A DNA stretch of 64,000 nt. Source: Squalus acanthias (Eukaryota). This document shows, piece by piece, positions 14,183 through 32,796 of this stretch; position 1 is the first letter of the stretch, and every line of letters starts with the position of its first letter. The notes under the pieces are model-generated. The model was not told the origin of the DNA and did not search any database. It worked only from the letters and a program-made list of their open reading frames with translations. A program made the translations under genes and the position numbers. Location: assembly GCA_030390025.1 (NCBI GenBank), contig JASTWF010000033.1, forward strand, positions 2,730,001-2,794,000, in the 5' to 3' direction.

Positions 14183-15414
14183 AGTAGAATAGAAAAGTGA
14201 GAACCAGTGGATGTGGTGTATTCGGACTTTCAGAAGGCTTTCGATTAGGTCCCGTATAAGAGATTAGCCGTGCAAAGTTAATGCACATTGGATTGGGGGT
14301 GAGGTACTGGCTTGGATAGATAACTGGTTGGCAGTCAGGAAGCAAAGAGTTGGAATAAACGGGTCTTTTTCCGAGTGGCAGGCAGTGACTAGTGGGGTAC
14401 CGCAGGGAACGGTGCTAGGACCCCAGCTATTCACAATATATATTAATGATCTAGACGAGTATACTAGATGTAATATCTCCAAGTTTACAGACGACACAAA
14501 GCTGGGTGGGCGCGTGTGTTGTGAGGTGGATGCAGAAAAACTCCAGTATGATTTAGACAGGTTGGGTGATTGGGCAGACGCATGGCAAATGCAGTATAAT
14601 GTGGATAAATGCAAGGTTATCCACATCGGTATCAAAAACAGGAAGGCAGATTATTATCTGAACGGCAATAGATTGGGGAAAGGGGAAGTGCAACGGGACC
14701 TGGGTGTCCTTGTGCACCAGTCGCTTAAGGTAAGCATGCAGGTGCAGCAGGTGGTTAAGAAGGCAAATGGTATGTTGGCCTTCATAGCGAGAGGAATCGA
14801 ATAGAGGAGCAAGGATGTTTTCCGGCAGTTGCACAGGGCCTTGGTGAGACCACACCTTGAGTATTGTGTGCAGTTTTGTTCGCCTTATCTGAGGAAGAAT
14901 GTTTTTGCCATGGAGGGAGTGCAGCGAAGATTCACCAGACTGATACCTGGGATGGTAGGAATGACGAATGAAGAGAGATTGGGTCGATTAGGCTTATATT
15001 CGGTAGAGTTCAGAAGAATGAGAGGGGATCTCATTGAAACTTATAAAATTCTAACAGCACTAGACAGACTAGATGGAGGAAGGATGTTCGCAATGGCGTG
15101 GGAGTCCAGAACCAGGGATCACAGTCTAAGGATAAGGGGTAAGCCATTTTGGACTGAGATGAGGAGGAATTTCTTCACCCAGAGTGTGGGGAACCTGTGG
15201 AATTCTCTACCAAAGAAGGCAGTTGAGGCCAATTCATTAAATATATTCAAGAAAGAGATAGATATATTTCTTAAGGCTAAAGGGATCAAGGGATATGGGG
15301 AGAAAGCAGGGCAGAGTATTGAATTTGGATGATCAGCCATGATCTCATTAAATGGCGGAACAGGCTCGAGGGGCCGAATGGCCTACTCCTGCTCCTATCT
15401 TCTATGTTTCTATG
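14183..15414 (+). mobile_element. 5'-truncated CR1 LINE
   Basis: RT ORFs 14328-14804 (FTDD) and 14829-15332; TTCTATGT tail. Confidence 0.92.
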
Positions 15415-16085
15415 TGTGGTGATGGTACTCCCATAGTGCTGTTAGGTAGGGAGTTACAGGATTTTGACCCAGCAACGATGAAGGATCGGCGATATTCATC
15501 TAAGTCAGGATGGTCTGTGAATTGGAGGGGAACTTGGAGGTGGTGGTTTTCCCATGCGCCTGCGGCCCTAGTCCTTCTAGGTGGCAGAGGTAGCGGGATT
15601 GGGAAGTGCTGCCGAAGAAGCCTTGGCGAGTTGTAGATTGTACACACTGCAGCCACGGTAACCCGGTGGTGGAGGGAGTGAATGTTTAAAGTGGTGGATG
15701 GGGTGCCAATCAAGCGGGCTGCTTTGTCTTGGATGGTGTCGGGCTTCTTGAGTGTTGTTGGAGCTGCACTCATCCAGGCAAGTGGAGAGTATTCCATCAC
15801 ACTCCTTACTTGTGCCTTGTTGATAGTGGAAAGGTTTTGGGGAGTCAGGAGATGTGACACTCGCCGCAGAATACCTAGCCTCTGACCTGCTAATGTTGTC
15901 ACAATATTTATGTGGCTGGTCCAGTTATGTTTCTGGTTACTCGTGGCCCCCAGGATGTTGAGAGTGGGGGAATCGGCGATGGTAATGCCATTGAATATCA
16001 AGGGGAGGTGATCAGACTGTCGCTTGTTTTAGATAGTCTTCGCCTGGCACTTCTGTGGCGCGAATGTTACCTGCCACTTTTCAGC
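15415..16085 (-). mobile_element. Non-LTR retrotransposon fragment (RT C-terminus, second LINE family), ending at the ERV LTR
   Basis: WTSHIN...GQRLGILRR...VRSVMEYSPLAW; same family as 30584-31897. Confidence 0.8.
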
Positions 16086-17645
16086 TGCAGCTTCCAAAAG
16101 CTCTTATAATAATTTGTCCGTGACTACACAAACCATTCAGGGTCCAGGTATATTGTGTATCAGTAAAACAGGTTTATTAGCATTAAACATCCAGTACAAA
16201 GAAGTAATACTTAACAAGGAGATAGTCACAGTCGTGTTCGTTTGAGCCTCGGCGTTCCTTCCGAGTGACTGTGGTGCGGTCTCTTTCTTCTCTTGCTGTT
16301 TTCGCTTGACAGCAGATCGCTTCTCTGGTTTCTTGCTGTGTTCTGTCGACTGAAGCTTCTTCAACTCTGGTTCGCGCTGCCTTCAATGTTCAAAATCCGT
16401 ATCTTTATACACCTTTTTTCCTCTTCCTACGTGACTGTAACAGCTATCAAACACCTGGTAAATGTTTTACGACATTGTTCATCCTACTCGGACTCGCTTT
16501 GGGCCCTTTTAACTTTAGATATTCTCTTTCCAAAGACCATTTCCCAAGAGGTTGTCTAAACAAACTGTCCATTTTATAATAGTTATCACTGATAGGTGCT
16601 TCTCTTATTTATCTCCCTCTTCTCCAACTCTTATCTCTTTTCTATCACATTACTGAATACCACCTCCCTGATAGTCCCCATAAACTTAGCATTACATTCC
16701 GTTACTTCAGAAATTGAAAACAGAGCGAGTTTCAGTCAGGTTGGCATAATTTCCCATCCTGCTTTTCTCTCAGCAATTTGACATTTTATACAGTCTTTTA
16801 GGCTTTTAACATACAATTTCAAATATTGGCCCGAAAATTAGAACTAATACGGGAGATTACGCACTGTGTACTCTCGCGTATTAGGTCCCGAAGTTCCGGT
16901 TTCCTGCATGCACTGTGCATGCGCGGGAAACCGGCACTTCGGGTATTGCGAAGGGGGCGCTCCCTAAGTGAACCGCGTGCGCACTACAGGTTGTGCGCAC
17001 GCAGCGCAATTAGTTTTTTTTTCAGGTTTGAACGCGCAGGTAAGTGTTGAAGATTTTACACATAAAGAAAGCAGGCGTAAGACCCCCTTTTAACAAGGTA
17101 AGTAGTTAATGAAGTATTATTTAAAAAAATTTCAACAGGTTTATCTTTTTAGAGACTTTAAAGAAAGGTAAGTTTATTTTTATAACCTTTAAAAAGAAAT
17201 TAAATTTTTTCAAAAATTTTAATTTTTGTTTAAAGTGGTTATTTTATTTAACTATAGTTATTTTATTAATGTGCTGGCTTTTTTTTAAATTTAATTGAGG
17301 TTTAGCTGTTCTTTTGCGGGCTTGTTGTATTCATAGTTTTGACAGCTCTTCCTGTCAAAACTATGAATGAAAGATGGTGTGCTGCCATTGGCTCTAACTG
17401 GCCCACGTGATCCCAGAGGTAGCATCGAACTAACTGCGCCTCTGGGATACGCACACACTGCGCGCCGGCACCAGGGAGAGGCCCAGGAACTGAAGGTCGT
17501 GTGGGCCAAAACTATAAAGGTAGGCGCGGAGTGCGATATCGCGGGGGATCCTTACCCCCGCGGCAACCATCGAAATCCAATTTCTGGGCCATTATAGTTA
17601 GACAAAAATGTTTCACTAAATCAAACAAATACACCATATCCTACG
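16086..17645 (-). repeat. 3' LTR (interrupted by MITE 16828-17590)
   Basis: Aligns end to end with 29733-30479; minus-strand TATAAA at 16404-16409 and AATAAA at 16173-16178. Confidence 0.92.
16828..17590. mobile_element. MITE family A copy 2
   Basis: TIRs GGCCCGAAAATT / AATTTCTGGGCC, ATT TSD; the other LTR has a single ATT at the empty site (~30426). Confidence 0.92.
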
Positions 17646-17658
17646 AATCCCTATCTTG
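17646..17658 (-). other. Putative polypurine tract
   Basis: Minus strand AAGATAGGGATT abutting the 3' LTR; short and imperfect. Confidence 0.5.
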
Positions 17659-17687
17659 AGGGCGATGCATTTGCAGACCCCGCAAAA

Positions 17688-20600
17688 CTAAACTCTTACA
17701 TATGGATTAGTTTCTTTTCGTTTGTGTAACTCTAAGTTATTTTGGGCTGTGATCATATTTAAAAGTGATTGCGTATTACACATCGGGTGTTTCAGGTAGC
17801 AGGTGTATAGTAGTAAGCATATTAGTACTGTGAGTTGGGCTACGACCAGTACATGTGAAATTATTCTAATCCAAGGAGAAATATCAATATTTGTTCCTTT
17901 ATCCCACCAGTGGCTCTGAATCTCGATGTCTGGAATTTCCTCGGCTATATCTTTACTTCCTTGCACCAACGTATAATAATGGCGTTGAGAGGTGCTCACT
18001 TGACTTATTAGCTCGGTTAATGCTTCAGGTAACTCAGAGATGTCATATCCGAATCTTGTGACATAATCTTCTAGATTTATTTTTAAATCATCAACTACTT
18101 GTAGTACGTTTTGGCCATTTGAGGCTATAACAAGGAGAATTCTTCGTCCTATTACCGTAGTCTTTGTAGGGGTCATTCAGTAGGTCCCTAGGGTTATTGA
18201 ACATTCACGTGTTCCATGACTATAGGAGTTCTTTAAATTGGTAAAATAATACCCCCCTTCTCGTAAGTAGGCTGTTCCAATTCTTACATCTGCGGGGCCT
18301 GTAACTTCCATGGTACAGTTTAACCTTTCTTCATTCCAACCATATCCACAGGTATCCTTTGAATGTTCCCATAAACTGTATGGATAGACAAAGGCATCCT
18401 CATTTGTATTGCATCTCTGGAGGTTTGGTTCAATCCATGTTAGTTTTCCTAATTGTACTAACCATTGTGGTGCCATGAGAAATCGGGTAATAGTATTCCC
18501 TTGTACTACTCCTATATTTCTATCCTAAATAAGGGGTTGGGCCCAGTTCGATTAATTAGACTAGGTATTTGTAGTATTAGTCCCATCAACCTTTGACTCC
18601 CTACCTCGTGGCATTCGGGTTTGACAGGGTGGATCCTAATCAAACTCCTGATCTTACATAGTTCTGCATCATCGTAATAATTGGATAGCCCTGATAAGTG
18701 TTTATTAGTGACCCAAGTGGGGAGACGTCCCTGATTGATGGTCTGAAGGTTTTCCCTAGTTTGTTCAATTAGCCAATTCCCGTACATAATGCATACATCA
18801 TTATGGGCTTCTTGATCAGAAGCATTTCTGTTTTCTCTAATCTGATCATTAATTGTTTTGGCACGATCCTCTATTTCATGTATGATGTCCCGTAGGTGTA
18901 TGGTCATTACCTGATCCTCCCTTAGCTCCTCACTTACTATGTTGTTTTCCCTACTAAGTTTCTCTTTCAACGTTTCCCTTACCGTTTGTAATTACATAAG
19001 AACATAAGAACATAAGAAATATGAGCAGGAGTAGGCCAATCAGCCCCTCGAGCCTGCTCCGCCATTCAATAAGATCATGGCTGATCTGATCCTAACCTCA
19101 AATCTAAAGAACACAAGAAGTAGGAGCAGGACCTGGCCACTCAGCCCCTGGGCACGCTCCGCCACCCACAGGGCCCTGACCGATCCGAACTCAGCCTCAT
19201 GTCCAATTTCCTGCCCGCTCCCCGTAACCCCTAATACCCTTTACCTCTAGGAAACTGTCTATTTCTGTTTTGAATTTATTTAATGATGATGTAGCTTCCA
19301 CAGCTTCCTTGGGTAGCAAATTCCACAGACCTACTAGCCTCTGAGTGAAGAAGTTTCTCCTCATCTCAGTTTTCAAAGAGCAGCCCCTTATTCTAAGATT
19401 ATGCCCCCTAGTTCTAGTTTCACCCATCCTTGGGAACATCCTTACCGCATCCACCCGATCAAGCCCCTTCACAATCTTATATGTTTCAATAAGATCGCCT
19501 CTCATTCTTCTGAAATCCAATGAGTAGAGTCCCAATCTAGTCAACCTCCCCTCATATGTCCACCCCCTCATCCCCGGGATTAACCGAGTGAACCTTCTTT
19601 GTACTGCCTCGAGAGCAAGTATGTCTTTTCTTAAGTATGGACAACAAAACTGTACGCAGTATTCCAGGTGCGGTCTCACCAATATCTTATATAACTGCAG
19701 CAATACCTCCCTGTTTTTATAATCTATCACCCTAGCAATAAAAGCCAACATTCCGTTGGCCTTCTTGATCATCTGCTGCACCTGCAAACTAACTTTTTGA
19801 TTTTCTTGCACTAGGAACCCCAGATCCCTTTGTACTGCAGTACTTTCCAGTTTCTCGCCATTAAGATAATAACTTGCTCTCTGAATTTTCCTGCCAAAGT
19901 GCATAACCCCACATTTTCCAACATTGAATTGCATCTGCCAAATCTCCGCCCACTCACCCAGCCTGTCTATATCCCCTTGTAGGTTTTTTATGTTCTCCTC
20001 ACTTTCTACTTTCCCTCCCATCTTTGTATCAACTGCAAACTTTGATATGTTACACTCGGTCCCCTCCTCCAAATCGTTAATATAGATTGTAAAGAGTTGG
20101 GGACCCAGCACCGACCCCTGCGGAACACCACTGGCTACTGGTTGCCAGTCCAAAAATGAACCATTTATCCCAACTCTCTGCTTCCTTTTAGATAACCAAT
20201 CCTCCACCCATGCCAGAATATTTCCCCCAATCCAGTGATTTTTTATCTTGAGCAATAATCTTTTATGTGGCACCTTGTCGAATGCCTTCTGGAAGTCTAA
20301 ATACACTACGTCCACTGGTTCCCCTTTATCCACCCTGTACGTTATGTCCTCAAAGAACTCAAGCAAATTATGTTTATCTAAATGTTCCGTTACTGTCTCC
20401 TTAATAATAGACTCCAAAATTTTACCCACCACAGATATTAGGCTAACTGGTCTATAATTTCCAGCCTTCTGCCTACTACCCTTTTTAAATAAGGGTGTTA
20501 CATTAGCAGTTTTCCAATCTGCCGGGACCTTTGCTGAGTCCAGGGAATTTTTGAAAATTATTACCAAAGCATCCACAATCCCTACTGCCACTTCCCTCAA

Positions 20601-22776
20601 GACCCTACGATGTAAGCCATCAGGTCCTGTGGATTTATCCGCCTTGAGTCCCATTATTTTACTGAGTACCAATTCCTTCGTGATTTTAATCGTATTTAGC
20701 TCCTCCAAACCTAGAGCCCCCTGTTTGTCCAGTGTTGGGATATTCTTCTTGTCCTCTACCGTAAAGACTGAAACAAAATATTTGTTCAGCATTTTTGCCA
20801 TCTCCATGTTTCCCACCATTAATTTCCCGGTCTCATCCTCTAAGGTACCTACGTTTGCCTTAGCCATCCTTTTTCTTTTTATATAACTATAGAAACTCTT
20901 GCTATCTGTTTTTATATTTTTTGCTAATTTATTTTCATAATCTATCTTCCCTTTCTTAATCAATCATTTAGTTATTTTTTGCTGTCTTTTGAACACTTCC
21001 CAATCTTCTATCCTCCCACTAAGTTTGGCTACCTTATATGTCCTTGTTTTTAGTCGGATACTATCCTTAATTTCTTTACTTAGCCACGGATGGCTGTCAT
21101 TTCTTTTACACCCTTTTTTCCTCAGTGGAATATATTTATTTTGAAAGTTGTAAAATAACTTCTTAAATGAACACCACTGCTCATGTACCGTCTTACCCTT
21201 TAATCTATTTTCCCAGTCCACTTTAATCAATTCCGCTCTCATACCATCATAGTCTCCTTTATTGAAGCTCAGTACGCTTCTTTGAGAACCAACCTTCTCA
21301 CCCTCTAATTGGATATGGAATTCAACCATGTTATGGTCACTCATTCCAAGGGGATCCTTAACTAGGATATTATTAATTAATCCTGACTCATTACACAGGA
21401 CCAGGTCCAAGGTTGCTTGTCCCCTTGTAGGATCAGTTACATACTGCTCAAGAAATCCATCCATAATACACTCAATAAACTCTTCCTCAAGGCTGCCCTA
21501 CCCAATTTGATTTGTCCAGTTAATATGATAGTTAAAATCCCCCATAATTATAGCTGTTTCCCTTATTACATGCCCCAACTATTTCCTGATTAATACTTCT
21601 TCCATTGTTTTTGTAAATCTGCAGAACCATTGAGTTAATTACCGATGTTACTGTGTTGAAACCTGTGAGTCCAGCGTTTATCAATCCTCTTTTCGGTCTA
21701 CTCTTTACCTGGCTGCTCTCTTTGGTGGTTCTAAACTCGTGACGGATGGTCCCTTCTGTTTTCTCTACACTTATAGGTAAGGGCGCCTTTTCCCAGTACG
21801 GATTAAAAACTTGCTGCAGCATTCTCTGAGTTAGTTGTGCTGTTTTGGGCAGCACTTTGGTAGTATTAGTTCTGTTAAATTTAGGATAACTGGTGGGTAT
21901 AATTACAACACCGTTCCCAGGTGCTGGTGTTAGTTGGGGTCATTATTCCTCGGGTAGACCTTCTCGTGATTCTGAATGACTTGCTTTCTCATCGGGTGTA
22001 AGCTTAACACTATAGACATACCCATCGTCCCTTACACATCCAGTTTTTGCATTTTCGAATTCTATTATGCTATTATATTTATTCTCAAATCCCTATAATT
22101 TCCCCAATTTTTAAAGTCATCATAAAGGGTTTCTGTTCTGCCGCGGTGACCTCTATATCGTCTCTGGGAATCTCATATCCTGCTGAGGTAATCTTTACAT
22201 CATATTCGGGAATAGGAGGCCTATCATCATCCTGATTTTTAAAGCCCATGGTAATATTCGACCCAACACAAGAATACTGGCCGGTATGTTTCTTCCACCA
22301 CCGAGGCCAGCATAATTGTATATTTCCCTTACTTTCCGAAGCTACTGGTCCCCGATTTGCGTCTTGTACCTGTTCCCAGATTCCATTATTTTTCTTCAGG
22401 AATTTCCACACATGTGGGCCTTTCCTGTTCCTTATCCCACACCTGATACACACACCATATCCTTCTTTTATTTCCCAATTATACACCTTTTCTTTTAATG
22501 TACACAACCCGTTATGTATGGTGTTGTTATATTATATGTTGTACTATTTCTGATCCAAACAGGAACATCCCCCTAATACGTCTCGGATGATCCGTTATAG
22601 TTCTTTGATTGTTTATGTCCGCCAACAATTCGAGGTTCTATTCCATAGATGGGGAGTAGGGCGCATTCGCCTCCTTCGTCCAGTGTACAGATGTTAATGG
22701 TAAAGTCAAAAGTTTGTGTTTCCTCCGGAGAGCTCACTGCACATCCAATTATCAGTATCAGCCTACAGAGCCACAT
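17688..22776 (-). pseudogene. env: Retroviral env (signal peptide, Ig-like SU, furin site, long TM), split by CR1
   Basis: MWLCRLILIIGCAVSS signal peptide; RPKR|GLINAGLTGFNTVTSVINS at 21699-21630; heptad-like and Cys-rich segments 18177-18970; TM helix IISHVLVVAQLTVLICLLLY; YVRV tail; frameshifts and stops. Confidence 0.85.
18992..21609 (-). mobile_element. Young 5'-truncated CR1 LINE inserted in env
   Basis: 588-aa RT ORF 19197-20963 plus APE ORF 20964-21464; (CATAAGAA)n tail; candidate TSD TTTGTAA at 18985-18991 and 21610-21616. Confidence 0.93.
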
Positions 22777-22783
22777 CTTTAAA

Positions 22784-22800
22784 CTGTGGGTAAACCAAAA
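22784..22800 (-). promoter_or_regulatory. Putative env splice acceptor
   Basis: Minus strand TTTTGGTTTACCCACAG, 7 nt upstream of the env ATG and just after the pol stop (22810-22812). Confidence 0.6.
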
Positions 22801-22809
22801 TGTTACATT

Positions 22810-25800
22810 TTAATTCTGAACAGTTTTCATCTGATTGATATGGAACCATTTCAGTTTAGATTCTCCCTTCGGACCATATGGGGTATTCAGTAGATACACA
22901 GCTGGATTTAATTTATCTACTATAGTATGAGGGCCCTTCCATTTTATCTCGAATGAGTGTTTTTTTCGGAGAGAAATGTTGTAACATTACTCGGTCTCCA
23001 GCATCATACTCAAATAGTTGTACCCTCTTATCATAATATCGCTTGATTTGTTCACGCGATTTGCCTATGTTAATGGCCACCAGCTTGCTTACCTTGTCCA
23101 TATGATCTATCGAGGTTTGTAACCATTTTTGGCTACATGGTTGTAGTTTTAATGGTGTGTTATTTCCCAATGTTACATGTCCTGGTATCTGCATTTGTCT
23201 CCCAGTCATAGCCTCATATGGACTTACCCTCGTAGTCCCGTGTGGGGTAGAGCGTATTGCCATTAGACATAAAGGCAACATGTCAGTCCACTGAGTGGGG
23301 TTTTCTATACACAACTTCTGCAACATTGGCCCAAAAATTATTCCCAGTCCGCGAGAGTACGCACTGTGTACTCTCGCGTATTCTGTCTCCAATTGCCGGT
23401 TTTCTGCATGCACTGCGCATGTGCTGAAAACCAGCACTTGGTGAACTCAAAAGGGGGCGGTTCCTAAGTGAACCGCGTGCGCGCTACAGGCTGCGTGCAC
23501 GCAGTGCAATTAGTGCGTTGAACGCTCAGGTAAGCATGGAAGATTTTGCACATAAAGAAAGGAGGCGTAAGACCCTCTTTGAACAAGGTAAGTAGTTAAT
23601 TAAGTATTATTTTAAATTTTTTTCAACAGGTTTATCTTTTTTAGAGACTTTAAAGAAAGGTAAGTTTATTTTTATAACTTTTAAAAAGATTATAAATTTT
23701 TTCAAAAATTTAATTTTTTGTTTAAAGTGGTTAATTTATTTAACTATACTTATTTTATTAATGTGATGGTTCTTTTTTTAAATTTAATTGAGGTTTAGCT
23801 GTTCTTTTGGGGGGTTTTGATTCATAGCTTTGACAGCCCTTGCTGTCAAAACTATGAATGAAAGATGGTGTGCTGCCATTGGCTCAAACTTAATCACGTG
23901 ATCCCACAGCTCGCACGAATTAACTGCGTCTGTGGGATGCGCACACACTGCACAGCTGCAGCCTTGAAACTAAAGTTCGTGTGAGCTCGGAAGGAAAAGG
24001 CAGGCGCGCAGTGAGATATTGCGGGGAAGCCTTACCCCCGCAGGAAGGCTCCGTCTTTAATTTCTGGGCCATTGTCTTTAAAAGTTCGATTTCCCCTCTC
24101 CGCAATCCCTGATGATTGTTGATTGTGCGCAATGTACAATTTATGTTTTATCTGTAACATTTCTTGCAGAGTTATGTAAACTGCCTCCGTAAAGTGTGGA
24201 CCCTGATCGCTATCCACTTGTAATGGCAATCCCCACCTGCAGAACACCTCACTCAGGAGAATTCGAGCTGCGGTGCGCGCTGTGTTATTTCTCGTGGGAA
24301 AAGCCTCGATCCATTTGGTGAAGTGATCGATTATCACAAGTGCGTACTCATAGTTTCCCTTGGATTTTGTTAGTGGACCAATAAAGTCAATCTGTAAGTG
24401 TGTCCATGGTCCCTCAGGAGGGGGTTCTGACCGAAGTAAAGCGCGATTTGAACATGAAGGGGGGTTTGTCTGCCGGTATGGCAGGCAGCGATTAACATAT
24501 TGTTCCACATACTGTTCCATTCCAGCCCACCAGCAAACAGGTAATAACTTTTGTAGTGTAGAGGCCGCTGAGTAATGTCCCGCCGCCGGGTGAGAATGAA
24601 AGAGAGCTAGAATTTCTTCCTTCAACTGAGGATTAATACAAACTACTAGATCTCCCTCTTTATTCCAGATCATTAGTAGGGGAGGGGTTTTATCTACACC
24701 TTGTTGCATTACAGTGGTGTCTGCCCATAGGGTGGGTGCTAGTAGCGGGCATCCCTGTTGATGTCAGGCTATTACCTGTGCATATGCATCCTGTAGGGCC
24801 AAAAGATCAATGGTTTTAGTCTCAGGCTCCGTCCCCACTACGGGTGTCTGAGTACCATTCATCACCCACCAAGGTAGTAACTTTCCATTCTCCGCCACCT
24901 CCTTAGCAAAGCGATCGGCCATTTGATTACATCGGGAATGGGGGGATGAATCTTTCTGATGGGCTGCTACCTTACCCACGTGAAGAGGGGCGACTCGTTC
25001 CTGGAGCACTTTCCATAGCTTACGGAGGAGACCAGAATGTAATAAAGATTTACCATCTGATGAGCAAAACTCATTTGTATTATAGAGGGGAAGAGCCATA
25101 ACTGTGTTACAAACGTAACTGCTGTCGGACCAGATATTTGATTCATCCATAGTCGTGTAATGTACGGCTAGAATTGCAGCAATCAGTTCTGCCTGTTGGG
25201 AGGAGTGGAAGGGAACTTGAAATTCCTCTGACCAATCGTGAGCGTCGATATCAATAAGGGCTCATCCAGTTCTAGGATGGCCGTCTACATAGTATGATGA
25301 CCAGTCAACGTACACATTTCGATCTCCGGGTATGGCGTTAGCCTTTACTGGATTTGGTTCCATATCTAGCACTGGTAATGGACACCGGTGTGGGCTTCCC
25401 TCATAGGCGAACATAAGGGGTAACAGCGTGGTTCGTTTAGGCGTAATGTCCTGGTCCCGCTGTAACAATTCGAGTGTCCATTTACTTATTCGCTGAGAGG
25501 ATACCTTGGTCTCACTTGGTTTTAACAGCAGATTAAGGGGCGTTTGTGGTGAATGCAGAATGACTTTCTGCAGTCTGGTAATGTAGGTGAAATGATTGAC
25601 TGCCCAAAATGTGGCAAATAGATGACGTTCACACGCTGAGATTGCACTTTCCACCCCTCGTAGTAGACGTGATGCATACGCGATAGGGCGTAGTGTCTCG
25701 CTGATTGCCTGTTTCTGATTCAAAACGGCAGTTAGTCTGGTAGGGGTGGAGCCTACTTCAAGGTGAAAGGGCTGACCGTGATCCGGGTAATGAGAGCAGC

Positions 25801-26996
25801 TGCCTGTGTCGTGGCTTGTTTCAAAGCACTAATCGCAGCAGTAGGTTGGACACCCCATACGGGTTGTATCTCCCTTTAAAAGATCATACAAATGTTTAGC
25901 CAAGACTGCAAAATACGGAATAAAATTTCGCTGGTATTCGAGCAAACCTAAAAAGGATCGCAATGCAGTCTTTGAAACTGGTAATGGGAGTCGCTGAATA
26001 GTCTCTATCTTCTTGTGGTCCGGACTAAGGCCAGTCGCTGAAATTTTTACTCCCAGAAAGGTAACCTCATCTTTTGCCAGCTGACCCTTTTTTGGATTTA
26101 TTTTCAGCCCTGCCTTTTGTACTAATCCTATCAGCTCATCTAGGAGTTCTAGGTCTTCTTCCATTGTTTCAGTAGCCAAAAGTAGATCATCAACATCCTG
26201 TAGAAGGGCTGAAGGTTTAGAAAAGTATTTAGCTGCTCGTGCCGTATACTGATGAAAGATCGATGGCGAGATATGAAACCCTTGCGGTCGTCACGTAAAT
26301 GTGTAGCCCTGCCCTTCAAACGTGAAAGCAAATTTGTACTGGTCCTCCTGAGCAACTGGAATACTCCAAAAACCACTCACTCTGTCTAAGATGGAGAAGA
26401 CAGTGGCCTTGGGGGGTATGGATTGTAGTAGTGAAGGGGCTTGACTAACAGTCGGGATTTGACGTGGGGAAGCTTTATTTAAGGCACGGTAATCAATAAT
26501 AAACCTCCAAGATTCATCCGGCATCCTAACTGGCCATGCAGTGGAATTGCTATTTAATTAACATTTGCGCAGTACTCCTTGTTCTTCCAATGAGGCAATG
26601 ACTGTTCGCAAATACGGATTACTTTCTCGGCGAATCTGATATTGTTTACATGCGCGATGGGATGGCCCATTAATTCGCGTCACCCTTTCCATCCTTTCGA
26701 AGTCGTGTTTAGATTTAGCAAAGGCTTCTGCATGTTTGGTCACGAAAGAGTTAACAGCAGGCAGAGAATGTGTCAGAGTGCTATCTGCTCAGGCTTCTTT
26801 ACAGCAAATAACGAGCGAGCGTCTGAGATTTGAACTACATCCCCCGGTTTAGACTCAACCCATAAACAATTCTGATTGTAATCTATAATGGCTGTCATTC
26901 CCCTTAGGGTATATTTCCCAAGTAGCCCATTCTGTATGTCATACACATGTACAATGGATCGGTAATTTTTACGGGGAATTCCTCGAGGGAAATATT
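22810..26996 (-). pseudogene. pol: Retroviral pro-pol (protease remnant, RT, tether, RNase H, integrase)
   Basis: NGLLG..L...AIID protease C-terminus; WRFIIDYRALN; LDRVSGFWSIP; LQDVDDLLL (YVDD position, ~26190); RPIAYASR tether; VYVD..S, QQAEL, WSDSSY, NQMAD RNase H; HSH..AGH, QIDFIGPL, SDQGPHF, SSGIAER integrase; ends WFHINQMK. Confidence 0.92.
23328..24070. mobile_element. MITE family A copy 3 in integrase
   Basis: TIRs GGCCCAAAAATT / AATTTCTGGGCC; ATT TSD; integrase continues on both sides (ERGNRT..|MLQKLC). Confidence 0.92.
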
Positions 26997-27725
26997 GGGC
27001 CAGAAATTCGGGTCTCCACGGATGAGTACGCGCAGGGTACTCACCCGCAGATTCAACGAAAGTGTCGGTTTCGCGCATGCACTGTGCATGCGCTGGAAAC
27101 CGGAACTTCCGTTCCCCTGAAGGAAGGGGTTCAGAGATCGAACGCGTGCGCCGGCGAGGCAGCGCATAGACCTCGAACTTCGTTTTTTTTTCAGGTTTCT
27201 CCATAAGGGTAAGTACGGAGAAGCTGTGCGGGGAAAAAGGAGGCGCAAGGCCTGCTTTTAACAAGGTAAGTGGTGAATTACGTACAATTTAAACATTTTT
27301 TCAACAGGTTTATCTTTTTTACATACTTTAAATAAAGGTAAGTTTATTTTTAGCACCGTTAAAAAGTGTAATAAATTTTTTCAAAAATTAAAATTTTTGT
27401 TTATAGTAGTTAATTTATGTAAATTATAGTTTTTTTAAAAATCTGTTGATTTTTTTTTAATTTATTTTAAGTTTTAGTGAGGTTTTGGGGCCGATCTCTA
27501 TTCATAGATTTGACTGGTCCGATTGGCTCTCCATGGCCCACGTGATCCCAGGGGACGCTTCGAACTAACTGCGCCCCTGGGATACACAAGCACTCCGCGC
27601 CGGCAGCTGGAGGAGGCCCAGGAGCCGAATTCCACGCGTGCCCGAAGCACAACGGCAGCCGCGGTATGCAAGTACGTGCGCGATTCTTGCACCCGCGGAA
27701 AGCCGGAGAGCCGAATTTTTGGCCC
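26997..27725. mobile_element. MITE family A copy 4 at the gag/pro junction
   Basis: TIRs GGGCCAGAAATTCGG / CCGAATTTTTGGCCC; flanks ATT and AAT. Confidence 0.9.
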
Positions 27726-29560
27726 AATACGTGTCTGCATCATACATGACATTCTTTCAAAACGTGAGTCCATGGCGTCCAGCCTGCTATCCACTGGATG
27801 AAGTGAACGGGACGGTCCATATCTCGGGTAATAAAAGTTATTCCTCCCACCTCCCGAGCCTGTTTGTCTAGGACTTAGGCAATCTTTTGCAAAGTGTCCC
27901 ATCTTGCCGCAGTTGTAACACATCAACGATTGCCTACGGGGGTTTGATACTAGAGAAGCCTGGGGTCCCTCAAATATACTTACTGGCGTTTCTGTTGTTG
28001 ATGCCTGGACCTGAATTTTAGCTTAGTCCCATGGAGAAGTAGCTTCTCTTAGAAGGGCTGTCCATTGCATGTTGTGGCTGACCGTGCGCCTAAAGCTGCT
28101 CGCAGTGAGTCTGAATATTCTTCAAATATATTTTCTTAAATGCAGCTTAATCCTTCCCGTTCAAAACATCAACTTTGGAGCGTGCTTGCATCATTTCATA
28201 AATACTGTACAACCGATCTCTGAAAGCAGCAGGGTTCTCATGAGGCCCTTTTTGGGTTTGGTTTAATTTCTGAACCAAATCAATAGTATCCAAGCCTAAG
28301 CTGTTAGTATATATGTGATTAAGACATTCAGTGTGTTCCCCACATTAAAGGCCAAGAAGGGGCGACTAGTCCGTATGTCCAGAGTGAGAGCAGACAGTGC
28401 AACATTCTTCATGTCATTGTCCTCAAAATTAGGATGGTAATTCCAGAATGCAACTATACATTGCCTTAGCTCTATAGGGCATCTTTGTGGATTAACTGGT
28501 CCGAATTGTTGGACACATGCCTGTAGTTCTGCATAGTTTAGGGGCTGGGATCTTTCATAATTACCTGCCCACAGTATCCTTCGAGCTGCCGTTGGTTGTA
28601 CTCCTCCTTGTGGCTGCACCCCCTCAAAAGCTGGTGGCGCGTTAGGAATCATTGGGTACGAGTCAGGACATTAACCGGAGCTCTAACGGGCGCAAGTTCG
28701 TCCGCTGAGGTTTCGATTATATTTTTATTAGCATAGGCTGGAGGTCTTTCAGCCAGGTCGATTGTGTCATATGGGACGGGGACCTTACGGGAAGGAAATA
28801 TCAAGGGAGATTATAGCTCCCCGCTTAACCCCTCGCGTTCTTTATCATAACTTTTGGGTGGGTCTACTCCCGTGACTGCGGCTATTACAGCCCATTGTTT
28901 ACCCAACTGATTTTCTAACTGTTGTATTGTATTCTGACATTGCTTGTGGTCTAACTCCCTGTGGGGGCGCTGAAGAGCCTCTCTCGGGGCCCCTCGTGAA
29001 TAATTTAATTGGCTGATCTAACAGTCATTATCTTTTGTTAAGAAGGCTACTTGGCTTTTACCCTCCTCAAGATTCTGTATTGCAGCGTCTGCATGAACTG
29101 CAGTAATACTCTGCTGTTGTATTATTGCTGTTGCAGCACCGATTAGTCCTTGAAGGACTTCTTGTGTATTGTTTAATTATACAGTTTCTTTTTCCCATTT
29201 TAATTTCTCACCCTGTAGCTTTAGATTCTCTTCTATAAGCTGTTCCAATTTTGACTTTTTACCCTGTAACGTTAGATTCTCTTCTATAAGCCGTAGTTTG
29301 TATTTTTCTAATTTATCCTGCTCATCTTCCATCTCTAGGAATGTTTATTTATCTTGTTTTACACAACACACAGCGGCATAGGCCATTAGCTGCGCTGCCC
29401 AATCCGGTTTCCGTTTCTTTTCCTTAACTTGACTTTCAATGAACGCCACAACGTCCACGAAAAGTACCTTCGCATCCTTTGTTAGACATTCTACTAACAT
29501 CTGTAACTGTGCCTCATCGCACTTCTTCATTAACTTCGCTTAATAGTCTCCAAGAAAATT
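27726..29560 (-). pseudogene. gag: Retroviral gag (N-terminal coiled coil, PPxY, capsid-like region, CCHC knuckle)
   Basis: CYNCGKMGHFAKDC knuckle at ~27880-27920; PPAY at 28733-28744; E/K/L/Q-rich helical region 28900-29400; start codon uncertain. Confidence 0.82.
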
Positions 29561-29711
29561 CTCACTCGAAATTCTGCTGTACGTTAAAGAGACACTGTCT
29601 GTTAGAAAACCAGACTTTCCACGAGGATCCTCGTTGATCAGAGGAAAATCCAAGTGAAAATCCAAACGCCTGCTTTCTGCACAATAGACCTGGTTTCAGT
29701 TAATAGTCACA

Positions 29712-29729
29712 GTCCCTGTCCGGGCGCCA
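29712..29729 (-). promoter_or_regulatory. Primer binding site, tRNA-Lys3
   Basis: TGGCGCCCGGACAGGGAC, 17/18 match to the canonical Lys3 PBS TGGCGCCCGAACAGGGAC, 3 nt from the LTR end. Confidence 0.92.
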
Positions 29730-29732
29730 AAT

Positions 29733-30479
29733 TGTAGCTTCCAAAGGCTGTTATAATAATTTGGCCGTGACTACAAAAATCACTCTGGGTACAGGTATAT
29801 TGTGTAGAAGTTAAATAGGTTTATTAAGCATTAAACATCCAGGACAAGGAAGTAATACTTAACAAGGAGATAGTCACAGTCTTGTTCCATTGAGGAACGC
29901 TGTTCCTTCCGAGCGACTGTGGTGCGGTCTCTTTATTCTCTTGCTGTTTTCTCTTGACTGAAGCTCCTTCAACTCGGATTGTGGGTTCGTGCTGCCTTCA
30001 GTGTTCAATATCCATATGTTTATACACTTTCCCTTTCTTTGCATACGTGACTGCAATCAGCTATCTGACACCTGGCACCTGCTTTTGACCTTGTTGATCC
30101 CACTAGATCTCGCTTTGTGCATAGGAAAGGGCCCATTATCTTTACATGTTCTCTTTCCAAAGACCATTTCCCAAGATGTTATCTAAACATCACTGAGGGG
30201 TGCCTTTAATTTTTCTGTCTGATCTCTTCTCTTCTCTCTTTTCCATCACATTACTGAATACCACGTTCCTGACAGTCTCCATAAACTTAGCATTCCATTC
30301 CATTACTTCAGTCATTGAAAACACAGCGAGTTTCATTCAGTTTGGCATAATTTCCCATCCTGCTTTTCTCTCAGCCATTCGCCATTATATACAGGCTTTT
30401 AGGCTTTTACTATACAATTTCACATATTAGAGTTATACAAAAAATGTTTACTAATCGTACAAATACACCCTATCCTACA
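29733..30479 (-). repeat. 5' LTR
   Basis: TGTAG...CTACA termini; minus-strand TATAAA at 30019-30024 and AATAAA at 29820-29825; adjacent PBS. Confidence 0.93.
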
Positions 30480-30583: not shown

Positions 30584-31897
30584 TCAATTTTTATTCATTA
30601 ATGGGATGTGGGCGTCGCTGGCATGGCCAGCATTTATAGCCCATCCATAATTGCCCTTTAGAAGGTGGTGGTGAGCCTTCCTGAATCGCTGCATTCCGTG
30701 TGGTGAAGGTACTCCCACAGTGCTGTTAGGGAGGGAATTCCAGGAATTTGACCCAGCGTTAATGAAGGAACGACGATATACTTCTAAGTAAGGATGATAT
30801 GTGACTTGGAGGGGAACTTGGAGGTGGTGGTGTTCCCGTGCGCTTGCTACCCTTGTCCTTCTAGATGGTAGAGGTCGTGGGTTTGGGAGGTGCTGCCGAA
30901 GAAGCCTTGGCGAGTTGCTGTAGTTGGTACGCACTGCAGCCACGGTACGCCGGTGGTTGAGGGAGTGACTGGTTAAGGTGGTGGATGTGGTGCCAATCAA
31001 GTGTGCTGCTTTGTTCGGGATGATGTCGAACTTCTTGAGTGTTGTTTGAGCTGCACTCATCCAGAAAAGTTTAGAGTATTCCTTCACACACCTGACTTGT
31101 GCCTTATAAATGGTGGAAAAGGCTTTTGCGATTCAGGAGGTGAGACACTCGCCGGAGGATACCCAGCCTTTGACCTGCTCTTGTAGCCACAGTATTTATG
31201 TGGCTGGTCCAGTTAATTTTCTGATCAATGGTGACAGCCAGGACATTGATGGTGGGGGATTTGGCGATGATAATCCCACTGAATGTCAATGTTACGTGGC
31301 TCTTGTTGGAGATAATCATGACCTGGCACTTGTGTGGCGCGAATGTTACTTGCCACTTATCAGGCCAAGCCTGTAAATCGCCCAGGTTTTGCTGCATGCG
31401 GGCATGCACTGCTTCATTATCTAAGCAGTTGCGAATGGAAGTGAACAATGTGAAATCTTCAATGAACATCCCCACTTCTGACATTATGATGGAGGGAAGG
31501 TCATTGATGAAGCAGCTGAAGATGGTTCGGCATAGGACTCAGCTCTGCAGTGATGTCCTGGGGATTAGATTATTGAACTTCTACAACCATATCCTTCTTC
31601 CTTTGTACTCGGTATGACTCCAGCCAGTGTAGAGTTTCCCTCCTGATTCCCATTGACTTCAGTTTTACTCGGGCTCCTTGATGCCAGACTGGGTCAAATG
31701 TTACCTTGATGTCAACAGCAGTCACTCACCTCACCTCTGGAATTCAGCTCCTTTGGCCTTGTTTGGACCGAGGCTGTAAAGAGTTCTGGAGCCGAGTGGT
31801 CGCGGCGGAACCTGAACTGAGCGCCAGTGAGCAGGTTATTGGTGAGTAAGTGCCGATTGATAGCACTGTTGATGACAGCTTTCATCACTTTGCTCAT
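30584..31897 (-). mobile_element. Non-LTR retrotransposon fragment (same family as 15415-16085)
   Basis: RT ORFs 31104-31484, 31712-31897 and 30584-31087; T-rich tail at ~30577-30600. Confidence 0.82.
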
Positions 31898-32070: not shown

Positions 32071-32694
32071 CAAAAAGAGCAGTGGTCCGAATAGCGACCC
32101 CTGGGGGACACCACTGTAAACTTCCCTGCAGTCTGAACAACCACGTTAACCACTATACTCTGTTTTCTGTCGCTTAGCCAACGTCAGATCCCCACTGCCA
32201 CTGCCCCTTTGGTCCTAACAAGGCTATTCAATGGCACTTTATCAAATGCATTTTGAAAGTCTATACACACAACATCAACCGCACTCCGCTCATCAAACCT
32301 CTTTGTTACTTCATCAAATAACTCAATCAATTTTGGCAGTGAACCTTTGCCGTTAGCATATCCGTGCTGTTTGTAATTTATTAATCTACGTTTTTCCAAG
32401 TGAGAGGTAATTTTCTCTGGGAATATGGCCTCTAGAAGTTTCCTCACCAGCAACATTAAGCTGACTGGCCTGCAGTAACAGGGTTTATCCCTCTCTCCTT
32501 TTTTAAGCAGGGTGTAACATTTACAACCCTCCAGCCCTCTGGCACCACTCCCATATTCAAGGAGGCTTGAAATATTATGGCCAATGCCTGCGATATTTCC
32601 AACATTCCTTCATCAGCAACGCTCATAAATCACATCCGGACCGGGTAAATCTCCTACTTTATTGTGGTACAAAAAGAGCTGGATTGAAAGGGGT

Positions 32695-32796
32695 TAACTG
32701 AAGCTGTTTGTTTAGTGACTGTAATTAATGTCAGTCTCCACGGGCTAACTGAAGATGTTTGTTCAGTGACTGTAATTAATGTCAGTCTTCATGGAC
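32695..32796. repeat. 51-bp tandem duplication upstream of GPCR exon 1
   Basis: taactgaag.tgtttgtt.agtgactgtaattaatgtcagtct occurs twice (32695, 32746). Confidence 0.85.

Follow-up and report, generated by a model that had tools for sequence, protein, structure and literature searches.

A 64,000 nucleotide (nt) stretch of Squalus acanthias DNA (GenBank assembly GCA_030390025.1, contig JASTWF010000033.1, forward strand positions 2,730,001–2,794,000; hereafter the window) carries a provirus on its minus strand at positions 16086–30479. The order of its parts is LTR-PBS-gag-pro-pol-env-LTR (LTR, long terminal repeat; PBS, primer-binding site). The provirus is a real, long-dead copy and is one of well over a hundred in the genome. 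It is probably the remnant of an old, inactivated germ-line retrovirus of a deep lineage, termed here Group A, which branches off after the lokiretroviruses and is either the sister of the canonical Retroviridae or at the base of the foamy-like branch. Group A is otherwise represented by Pol proteins from Xenopus tropicalis and another three frogs, from the coelacanth and a sea turtle, and from three further assemblies. The original prediction, made from the sequence alone, described an LTR-bounded provirus at the same positions and assigned it to a loki-like lineage. The provirus stands, on the minus strand and with LTRs that are 87.0% identical; the assignment is not upheld by the phylogeny of the Pol protein.

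The Pol sequence at 26788–24035 is a single frame with five stop codons. It continues into the C-terminal region of the integrase, which is in two frames. The domains are as follows.

25832–26557, minus strand: reverse transcriptase (RT), with the box DVDD and one in-frame stop codon; Pfam RVT_1 in two pieces
25265–25828, minus strand: tether with a gypsy-type RNase H fold; Pfam RT_RNaseH, 61.5 bits
24767–25261, minus strand: second (acquired) RNase H; Pfam RNase_H, 47.3 bits, E 3.1e-12
24071–24763, minus strand: integrase (IN) zinc-binding and catalytic core domains; Pfam Integrase_H2C2 and rve
22813–23327, minus strand: integrase C-terminal region in two frames; phmmer matches to residues 1017–1183 of the X. 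tropicalis protein P0002, E 3.9e-43 and 2e-15

The RT box is DVDD in the provirus versus YVDD in its relatives. When the tether is aligned with six RNase H domains of gypsy elements, three of the four catalytic residues retained there are missing from it, and the rows for lokiretroviruses (Loki), snakehead retrovirus (SnRV), MuLV and foamy viruses display the same loss. The Pfam matches and the tether alignment thus bear out the xVDD-type RT, the degenerate tether with a second RNase H, and the integrase that had been proposed for this locus.

The Pol read-through was searched against 5.8 billion proteins. Its closest relative is P0002 of X. tropicalis, which has the UniRef name “Gypsy retrotransposon integrase-like protein 1” and is 49% identical over 98% of the query. 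Identities are 46–48% for Latimeria proteins, 37–38% for frog proteins named “NYNRIN-like”, 32% for SnRV and 27–28% for gamma-like endogenous retroviruses (ERVs). An exhaustive search of cluster representatives gives the same order, with P0002 at 882 bits and P0004 at 591, followed by Latimeria and Xenopus proteins, then the lokiretroviral proteins P0102 (404 bits) and P0106 (371 bits), then SnRV (P0111, 343 bits). Among the Group A Pol proteins are P0002, the frog proteins P0003, P0004 and P0259, and the Latimeria proteins P0006–P0008, P0097 and P0104. The window Pol is colinear with these proteins in the order protease (PR)-RT-tether-RNase H-IN, at 37%–49% identity over 97%–98% of the query, and has their LPQG and YEG..H.C motifs. 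The Group A Pols are database gene predictions and the comparison is one of Pol only; no published virus description was found for them.

Reference viruses for the trees were taken from IMG/VR and identified by comparing their RT text with named rows in the supplement of the lokiretrovirus paper (Wang and Han 2020, PMC7947760). These are SnRV (L001), Xen-1 (L002), MuLV, KoRV, FLV and REV, to which foamy, class II and lentiviral IMG/VR records were added. Loki is represented by P0102, P0106 (Labeo rohita) and P0155, which closely resemble fish and lamprey rows of that supplement and carry the RCPFGY motif. The RT tree was computed from 68 hand-chosen rows and 274 columns under the LG+C20 model. 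The rows are the window, 13 Group A proteins, three Loki proteins, SnRV, Xen-1, 14 other ERV proteins with a dual RNase H, eight of 13 foamy loci, five gamma, five class II, three lentiviral and 14 gypsy sequences.

In the RT tree the window and P0002 form a pair (branch support 99/92) within Group A, which comprises 14 rows, the window included, with the others from frogs, coelacanth, turtle and further sources (97/83). Group A is the sister of a clade of 37 canonical retroviruses that includes SnRV, foamy, epsilon, gamma and class II rows (97/91). Group A and the canonical retroviruses are united at 100/99, to the exclusion of the three Loki rows, which form a clade of their own (100/99), and of the 14 gypsy rows (100/99). 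When Group A is constrained to group with Loki, the cost is 20.4 log-likelihood units and the approximately unbiased (AU) test gives a p of 0.0255. A quick IN tree of 63 rows agrees in its branching order; Group A is a grade there, the window and P0002 pair at 100, and the window is placed between Loki and the canonical retroviruses. In a quick RNase H tree (53 rows, 156 columns), Group A falls within a clade of 34 rows that also contains SnRV and gamma- and epsilon-like rows (SH-aLRT 96). Loki is separate (99) in this tree, and foamy viruses and lentiviruses are also apart from Group A. The presence of the dual RNase H and of an env gene, together with an RT apart from the gypsy rows, agrees with the earlier view that the provirus belongs to the Retroviridae and not to the Ty3/Metaviridae. 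Of the outcomes set beforehand for an RT phylogeny, a position away from gypsy elements is obtained, as is a position outside the sampled retrovirus crown in the free tree; the window lies outside the Loki clade as well, and on this point the original prediction fails.

Several features are shared with lokiretroviruses. They too are deep-branching, their RNase H is dual and their integrase of the H2C2 type, they have an env that is not gamma-type, with a furin site and a long transmembrane (TM) subunit, and their hosts are fishes, amphibians, coelacanth and turtles (PMC7947760). The two Loki Pols score slightly above SnRV against the window Pol (404 and 371 versus 343 bits), and the integrase C-terminus matches Loki proteins next after Group A. 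The NCBI name “NYNRIN-like” is also common to Group A and Loki Pol proteins (P0003, P0004, P0106 and P0259); this shared naming fits the published link between the Loki integrase and CGIN1, and suggests adding Group A to that comparison. The reading that the provirus is a true lokiretrovirus is, however, highly improbable. The window RT and IN are nearer to the canonical retroviruses, as given above, its RNase H is of another type, and the RT motif of Group A is LPQG-type versus RCPFGY in Loki. Twelve Group A peptides, taken from seven proteins, were compared with the Loki supplement and 11 are absent from it; the sole match, WRLTVD in Loki-Bpe, is generic. The published screen found lokiretroviruses in none of six chondrichthyan genomes (supplement Fig. 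S1, PMC7947760), thus a shark “loki” would have been an extension of the host range to cartilaginous fishes.

The env gene at about 22809–17691 (minus strand) is spread over several frames. A separate env had been proposed, and is borne out by env pieces located between pol and the 3′ LTR.

21610–22809, minus strand: pieces of the env surface subunit, with a signal-like segment, a weak Ig_3 match, the furin site SRPKR and the fusion peptide GLINAGLTGF...
17691–18991, minus strand: env TM subunit, made up of a heptad region, a Cys-rich core, a second helical region, a membrane anchor and a short tail, with one frameshift and one stop codon

The furin site SRPKR precedes GLINAGLTGFNTVTSVINSM, and four of six sister env frames that were examined in the genome display RxKR or RRRR followed by GLIN(D/A)G. 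The Ig_3 match is that of the surface-subunit piece at 22088–22531 (minus strand; Pfam, E 0.013). A natural sister frame of the TM subunit is 467 amino acids (aa) in length. On these sequence features Env is a predicted class I-type glycoprotein with a TM subunit of about 465 residues. The end of env is 45 bases short of the 3′ LTR, which leaves no room for accessory genes.

Searches with Env gave few leads. In the set of 5.8 billion proteins (longer proteins), none of 1015 candidates is an Env homologue at E ≤ 0.01. Six env pieces searched with phmmer against 322 collected proteins matched only the read-through of the provirus itself (P0096), and a profile from the Env alignment gave chance-level matches to PDB sequences (best E 0.072). 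The Fusion_gly family (PF00523) has no match in the env pieces of the provirus at E up to 10, nor is it matched by any of 23 Env sequences when E values up to 1 are admitted, which would be a further point of difference from lokiretroviruses. A PF00523 scan of the whole assembly under a strict filter was negative too, as were its controls. Comparison with the SnRV Env gave BLASTP E values above 0.6 and an hhalign probability of 0.3%. In the ESM Atlas, the nearest neighbors of the natural sister TM-subunit frame are a rotifer cluster, gypsy/Baculo_F clusters and Fusion_gly (F0) clusters, at scores of 0.94–0.95 and about 200 shared features, which have a low recognition value. Fusion_gly (F0) clusters account for 10 of the 30 language-model matches of the sister Env, at a score of 0.94. 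This would favor a lokiretroviral Env; the likeness to F, coming from language-model neighbors, is a lead only. Foamy Env is reported to have a core in common with paramyxovirus F (PMC11468914), and therefore an F-type Env alone would not mark a lokiretrovirus.

The gag and protease regions are also heavily disrupted.

27740–29539, minus strand: remains of gag, namely a charged N-terminal region, two further frames with capsid-like pieces, and nucleocapsid
27879–27920, minus strand: single CCHC zinc knuckle CYNCGKMGHFAKDC; Pfam zf-CCHC, E 1.4e-6
26776–26992, minus strand: C-terminal part of the protease; P0258 (E 2.3e-8) and P0002 matched in their protease regions by phmmer

The gag sequence is spread over at least three frames; a single frame, interrupted by four stop codons, covers the first 296 residues. 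The single CCHC knuckle that had been predicted is confirmed by the Pfam match. The long coiled coil that had been predicted alongside it is not: the N-terminal read-through of 296 residues matches no SMC or coiled-coil Pfam family, and a crude heptad scan gave no coiled-coil window in gag. The absence of an smc-like match in this read-through is a difference from lokiretroviruses, although an smc-like gene is present in some of these only (PMC7947760). When eight gag pieces were searched with phmmer against the 322 collected proteins, matches were obtained to the zinc-knuckle piece alone. The protease is recognizable only in its C-terminal part. A 51-bp tandem duplication at 29192–29293 doubles 17 residues (LIEENL.LQG.K.K.E.) in the charged N-terminal part of Gag, and a second, separate 51-bp tandem duplication is present in the window at 32691–32792.

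The SnRV Gag (L001 316–2193) displays a long charged helical region with weak matches to several coiled-coil Pfam families, and one CCHC knuckle. A coiled-coil region and a single CCHC knuckle were previously taken as Loki evidence; both also occur in SnRV. Gag is one of several properties that would suit an SnRV-like orthoretrovirus, i.e. the CmiERV lineage I of Han 2015. The window shares with SnRV a charged or coiled Gag region, the single knuckle and the RNase H type; the gag sequence has a weak match to the SnRV Gag (E 0.004); about half of the first 53 RT residues are identical to SnRV as judged by eye; and chimaera ERVs are reported to cluster with SnRV (Han 2015). The membership in this lineage is very unlikely, however. 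SnRV belongs to the canonical clade (97/91), of which Group A is not a part, the window Pol is 32% identical to SnRV versus 49% to P0002, Env similarity to SnRV is lacking in the comparisons given above, and the extra frames that SnRV has after env have no counterpart in the provirus.

The LTRs and the PBS are located as follows.

29733–30479, minus strand: 5′ LTR, TG...CA, with a TATA-like sequence GTGTATAAA and an AATAAA signal inside; aligned pairwise with the 3′ LTR
29712–29729, minus strand: PBS TGGCGCCCGGACAGGGAC, 3 nt beyond the 5′ LTR; complementary at 17 of 18 positions to the 3′ end (with CCA) of the host tRNA-Lys(UUU)
16086–17645, minus strand: 3′ LTR, with the purine run AAGATAGGGA before it and a nested insertion at 16828–17590 inside

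The LTR starts with TG in the 5′ copy and with CG in the 3′ copy, and ends with CA. The 3′ LTR is split by an insertion of 763 bp, and its two parts were aligned separately with the 5′ LTR. The identity of 87.0% is over 724 aligned positions and corresponds to a Kimura two-parameter (K2P) distance of 0.143, plus several indels. The Lys3-type PBS of the original prediction is substantiated by the 17 of 18 bases that fit the host tRNA, and the single odd position is a possible G-U pair. A pattern for the T-arm and acceptor of the tRNA, ending in GTCCCTGTTCGGGCG, has 263 matches in the host genome, and ARAGORN identifies tRNA-Lys(ttt) at two of three loci that were checked. The tRNA-Lys(UUU) genes form long tandem arrays that repeat about every 1.78 kb (contigs C29, C2208, C1484 and others; loci L105–L112). 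Both flanks of the provirus (15414–16084 and 30698–31363) carry the same part of a long interspersed nuclear element (LINE) RT, and the two sequences are about 79%–90% alike.

At a K2P distance of 0.143 the age would be about 140 to 325 million years, using the rates of 0.5e-9 and 2.2e-10 that two papers assume for cartilaginous fishes; this is read only as “very old”, because the rates are uncertain and no target-site duplication was found.

Several points weigh against the placement of the provirus as given at the outset. The RT tree is composed of rows other than the published amphibian and coelacanth Loki consensus sequences, XtrFLERV, CmiFLERV, the foamy-like endogenous retroviruses (FLERVs) of fishes and ERV-L. 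The AU p of 0.0255 against Group A with Loki is modest, and this grouping was named after the tree had been seen. The trees of RNase H and IN come from quick searches, and the domains are short. A constraint that groups Group A with foamy viruses lowers the log-likelihood by 2.35 with an AU p of 0.41 and is not rejected, thus a position as sister to all canonical retroviruses is not secure. AlphaFold2 models of the sister TM-subunit frame, from two runs with 23 and 70 natural sequences, have a mean pLDDT (predicted local distance difference test) of 35.6 and 35.5, which is too low to give the fold of Env. At the ends of the provirus a target-site duplication was not found, with GGAGT upstream versus GCTGA downstream. 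The downstream copy of the flanking LINE is cut exactly at the LTR, and the half that it lacks does not occur upstream of the 5′ LTR. Since a target-site duplication was not found and the flanks are not halves of one LINE, the two LTRs may stem from different proviruses, and the dating is weaker for it. The missing duplication together with the LINE flanks suggests recombination between proviruses or a later rearrangement.

The foamy constraint is also the first argument for a different assignment, in which the provirus is a basal FLERV and forms one group with XtrFLERV of a frog and CmiFLERV of a chimaera. This is possible, if somewhat unlikely. Aiewsakun and Katzourakis 2017 (PMC5512871) report that the frog FLERV groups with those of the chimaera, on a long branch that is basal in the foamy-like clade, with the chimaera represented by pol only. 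This frog-shark cluster fits the pairing of Xenopus with the window. The TM subunit of about 465 residues is long as in foamy Env, which is itself reported to be structurally F-like (PMC11468914), and the catshark element ERV-Spuma.0-Sca is 9,220 nt in length according to Song et al. 2023 (PMC10699275) versus about 9.5 kb for the provirus without its nested insertions. The hosts, which include frog, chimaera and catshark, and the basal position are also alike. On the other hand, the canonical clade of the free RT tree (97/91) contains the foamy viruses but not Group A, and the RNase H of Group A does not group with that of foamy viruses. No Spuma-specific Pfam family was matched in the provirus, and there are no bel-like or other genes after env. 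The window Gag has a CCHC knuckle, whereas foamy Gag is not known to have one. The PBS fits Lys(UUU), versus the Lys1,2 or Asn reported for foamy viruses and FLERVs (e.g. PMC5512871).

Group A may be XtrFLERV/CmiFLERV, the SnRV-like CmiERV or ERV-Spuma.0-Sca under another name, the comparison with these being by description only. That Group A is instead an unrecognized major lineage, the sister of all canonical Retroviridae with hosts from cartilaginous fishes to frogs, coelacanth and turtles, is rather doubtful. The broader reading, in which Group A diverges after lokiretroviruses and is either sister to the canonical viruses or basal on the foamy-like branch, is the one preferred here. Group A combines a canonical-type RT and RNase H with an envelope that is unlike the gamma-type or SnRV envelopes. 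If confirmed with published reference sets, it would represent a new branch point between lokiretroviruses and canonical retroviruses. If in addition its Env is of the F or foamy type, Loki, Group A and foamy viruses would share a fusogen; the F-type would then be ancestral and the gamma-type Env a later replacement. Deep retroviral history depends on few fossil lineages, and the abundant natural copies of this family offer a means to approach the question of the early retroviral envelope type. The family is large, and the copy in the window, being badly damaged, is of no particular value by itself.

The search for sister proviruses that had been recommended shows relatives to be abundant. In the 3.7-Gb assembly, the TM-subunit piece has at least 141 matches (37%–87% identity) and the capsid piece at 28299–28670 has at least 150 (38%–84% identity); many of the env and capsid matches carry long open frames. 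From these parts a life history can be proposed. Reverse transcription would have been primed by the host tRNA-Lys(UUU). Gag would have consisted of a charged N-terminal region, a capsid and a nucleocapsid with one CCHC knuckle, and Pro-Pol would have had the order PR-RT-tether-RNase H-integrase. Env was presumably a class I-type glycoprotein that was cleaved by furin and had a TM subunit of unusual length (about 465 residues), possibly of the F or foamy type, and accessory genes after env appear to have been lacking. The family would have multiplied to well over a hundred copies, and this copy would later have sustained four transposon insertions, stop codons and frameshifts.

The damage to the provirus consists of three insertions that resemble miniature inverted-repeat transposable elements (MITEs), one LINE, and many stop codons and frameshifts. 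All four of the nested insertions that had been proposed are recovered.

16828–17590: MITE-like copy 1, within the 3′ LTR
23328–24070, plus strand: MITE-like copy 2, within the integrase
26993–27729, plus strand: MITE-like copy 3, which splits the gag-pro junction; arms at 26993–27017 and 27705–27729
18992–21609, minus strand: 5′-truncated LINE, with an endonuclease, an RT frame of 588 aa and a tail of TTCTTATG repeats, within the first heptad region of env

The three MITE-like insertions are copies of one non-coding element of about 740 bp, are in the same orientation and are 62%–91% alike. Copy 3 displays 25-nt terminal inverted repeats (TATTGGGCCAGAAATTCGGGTCTCC) that are 92% complementary. 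The element looks like a MITE-type DNA transposon that struck this provirus three times.

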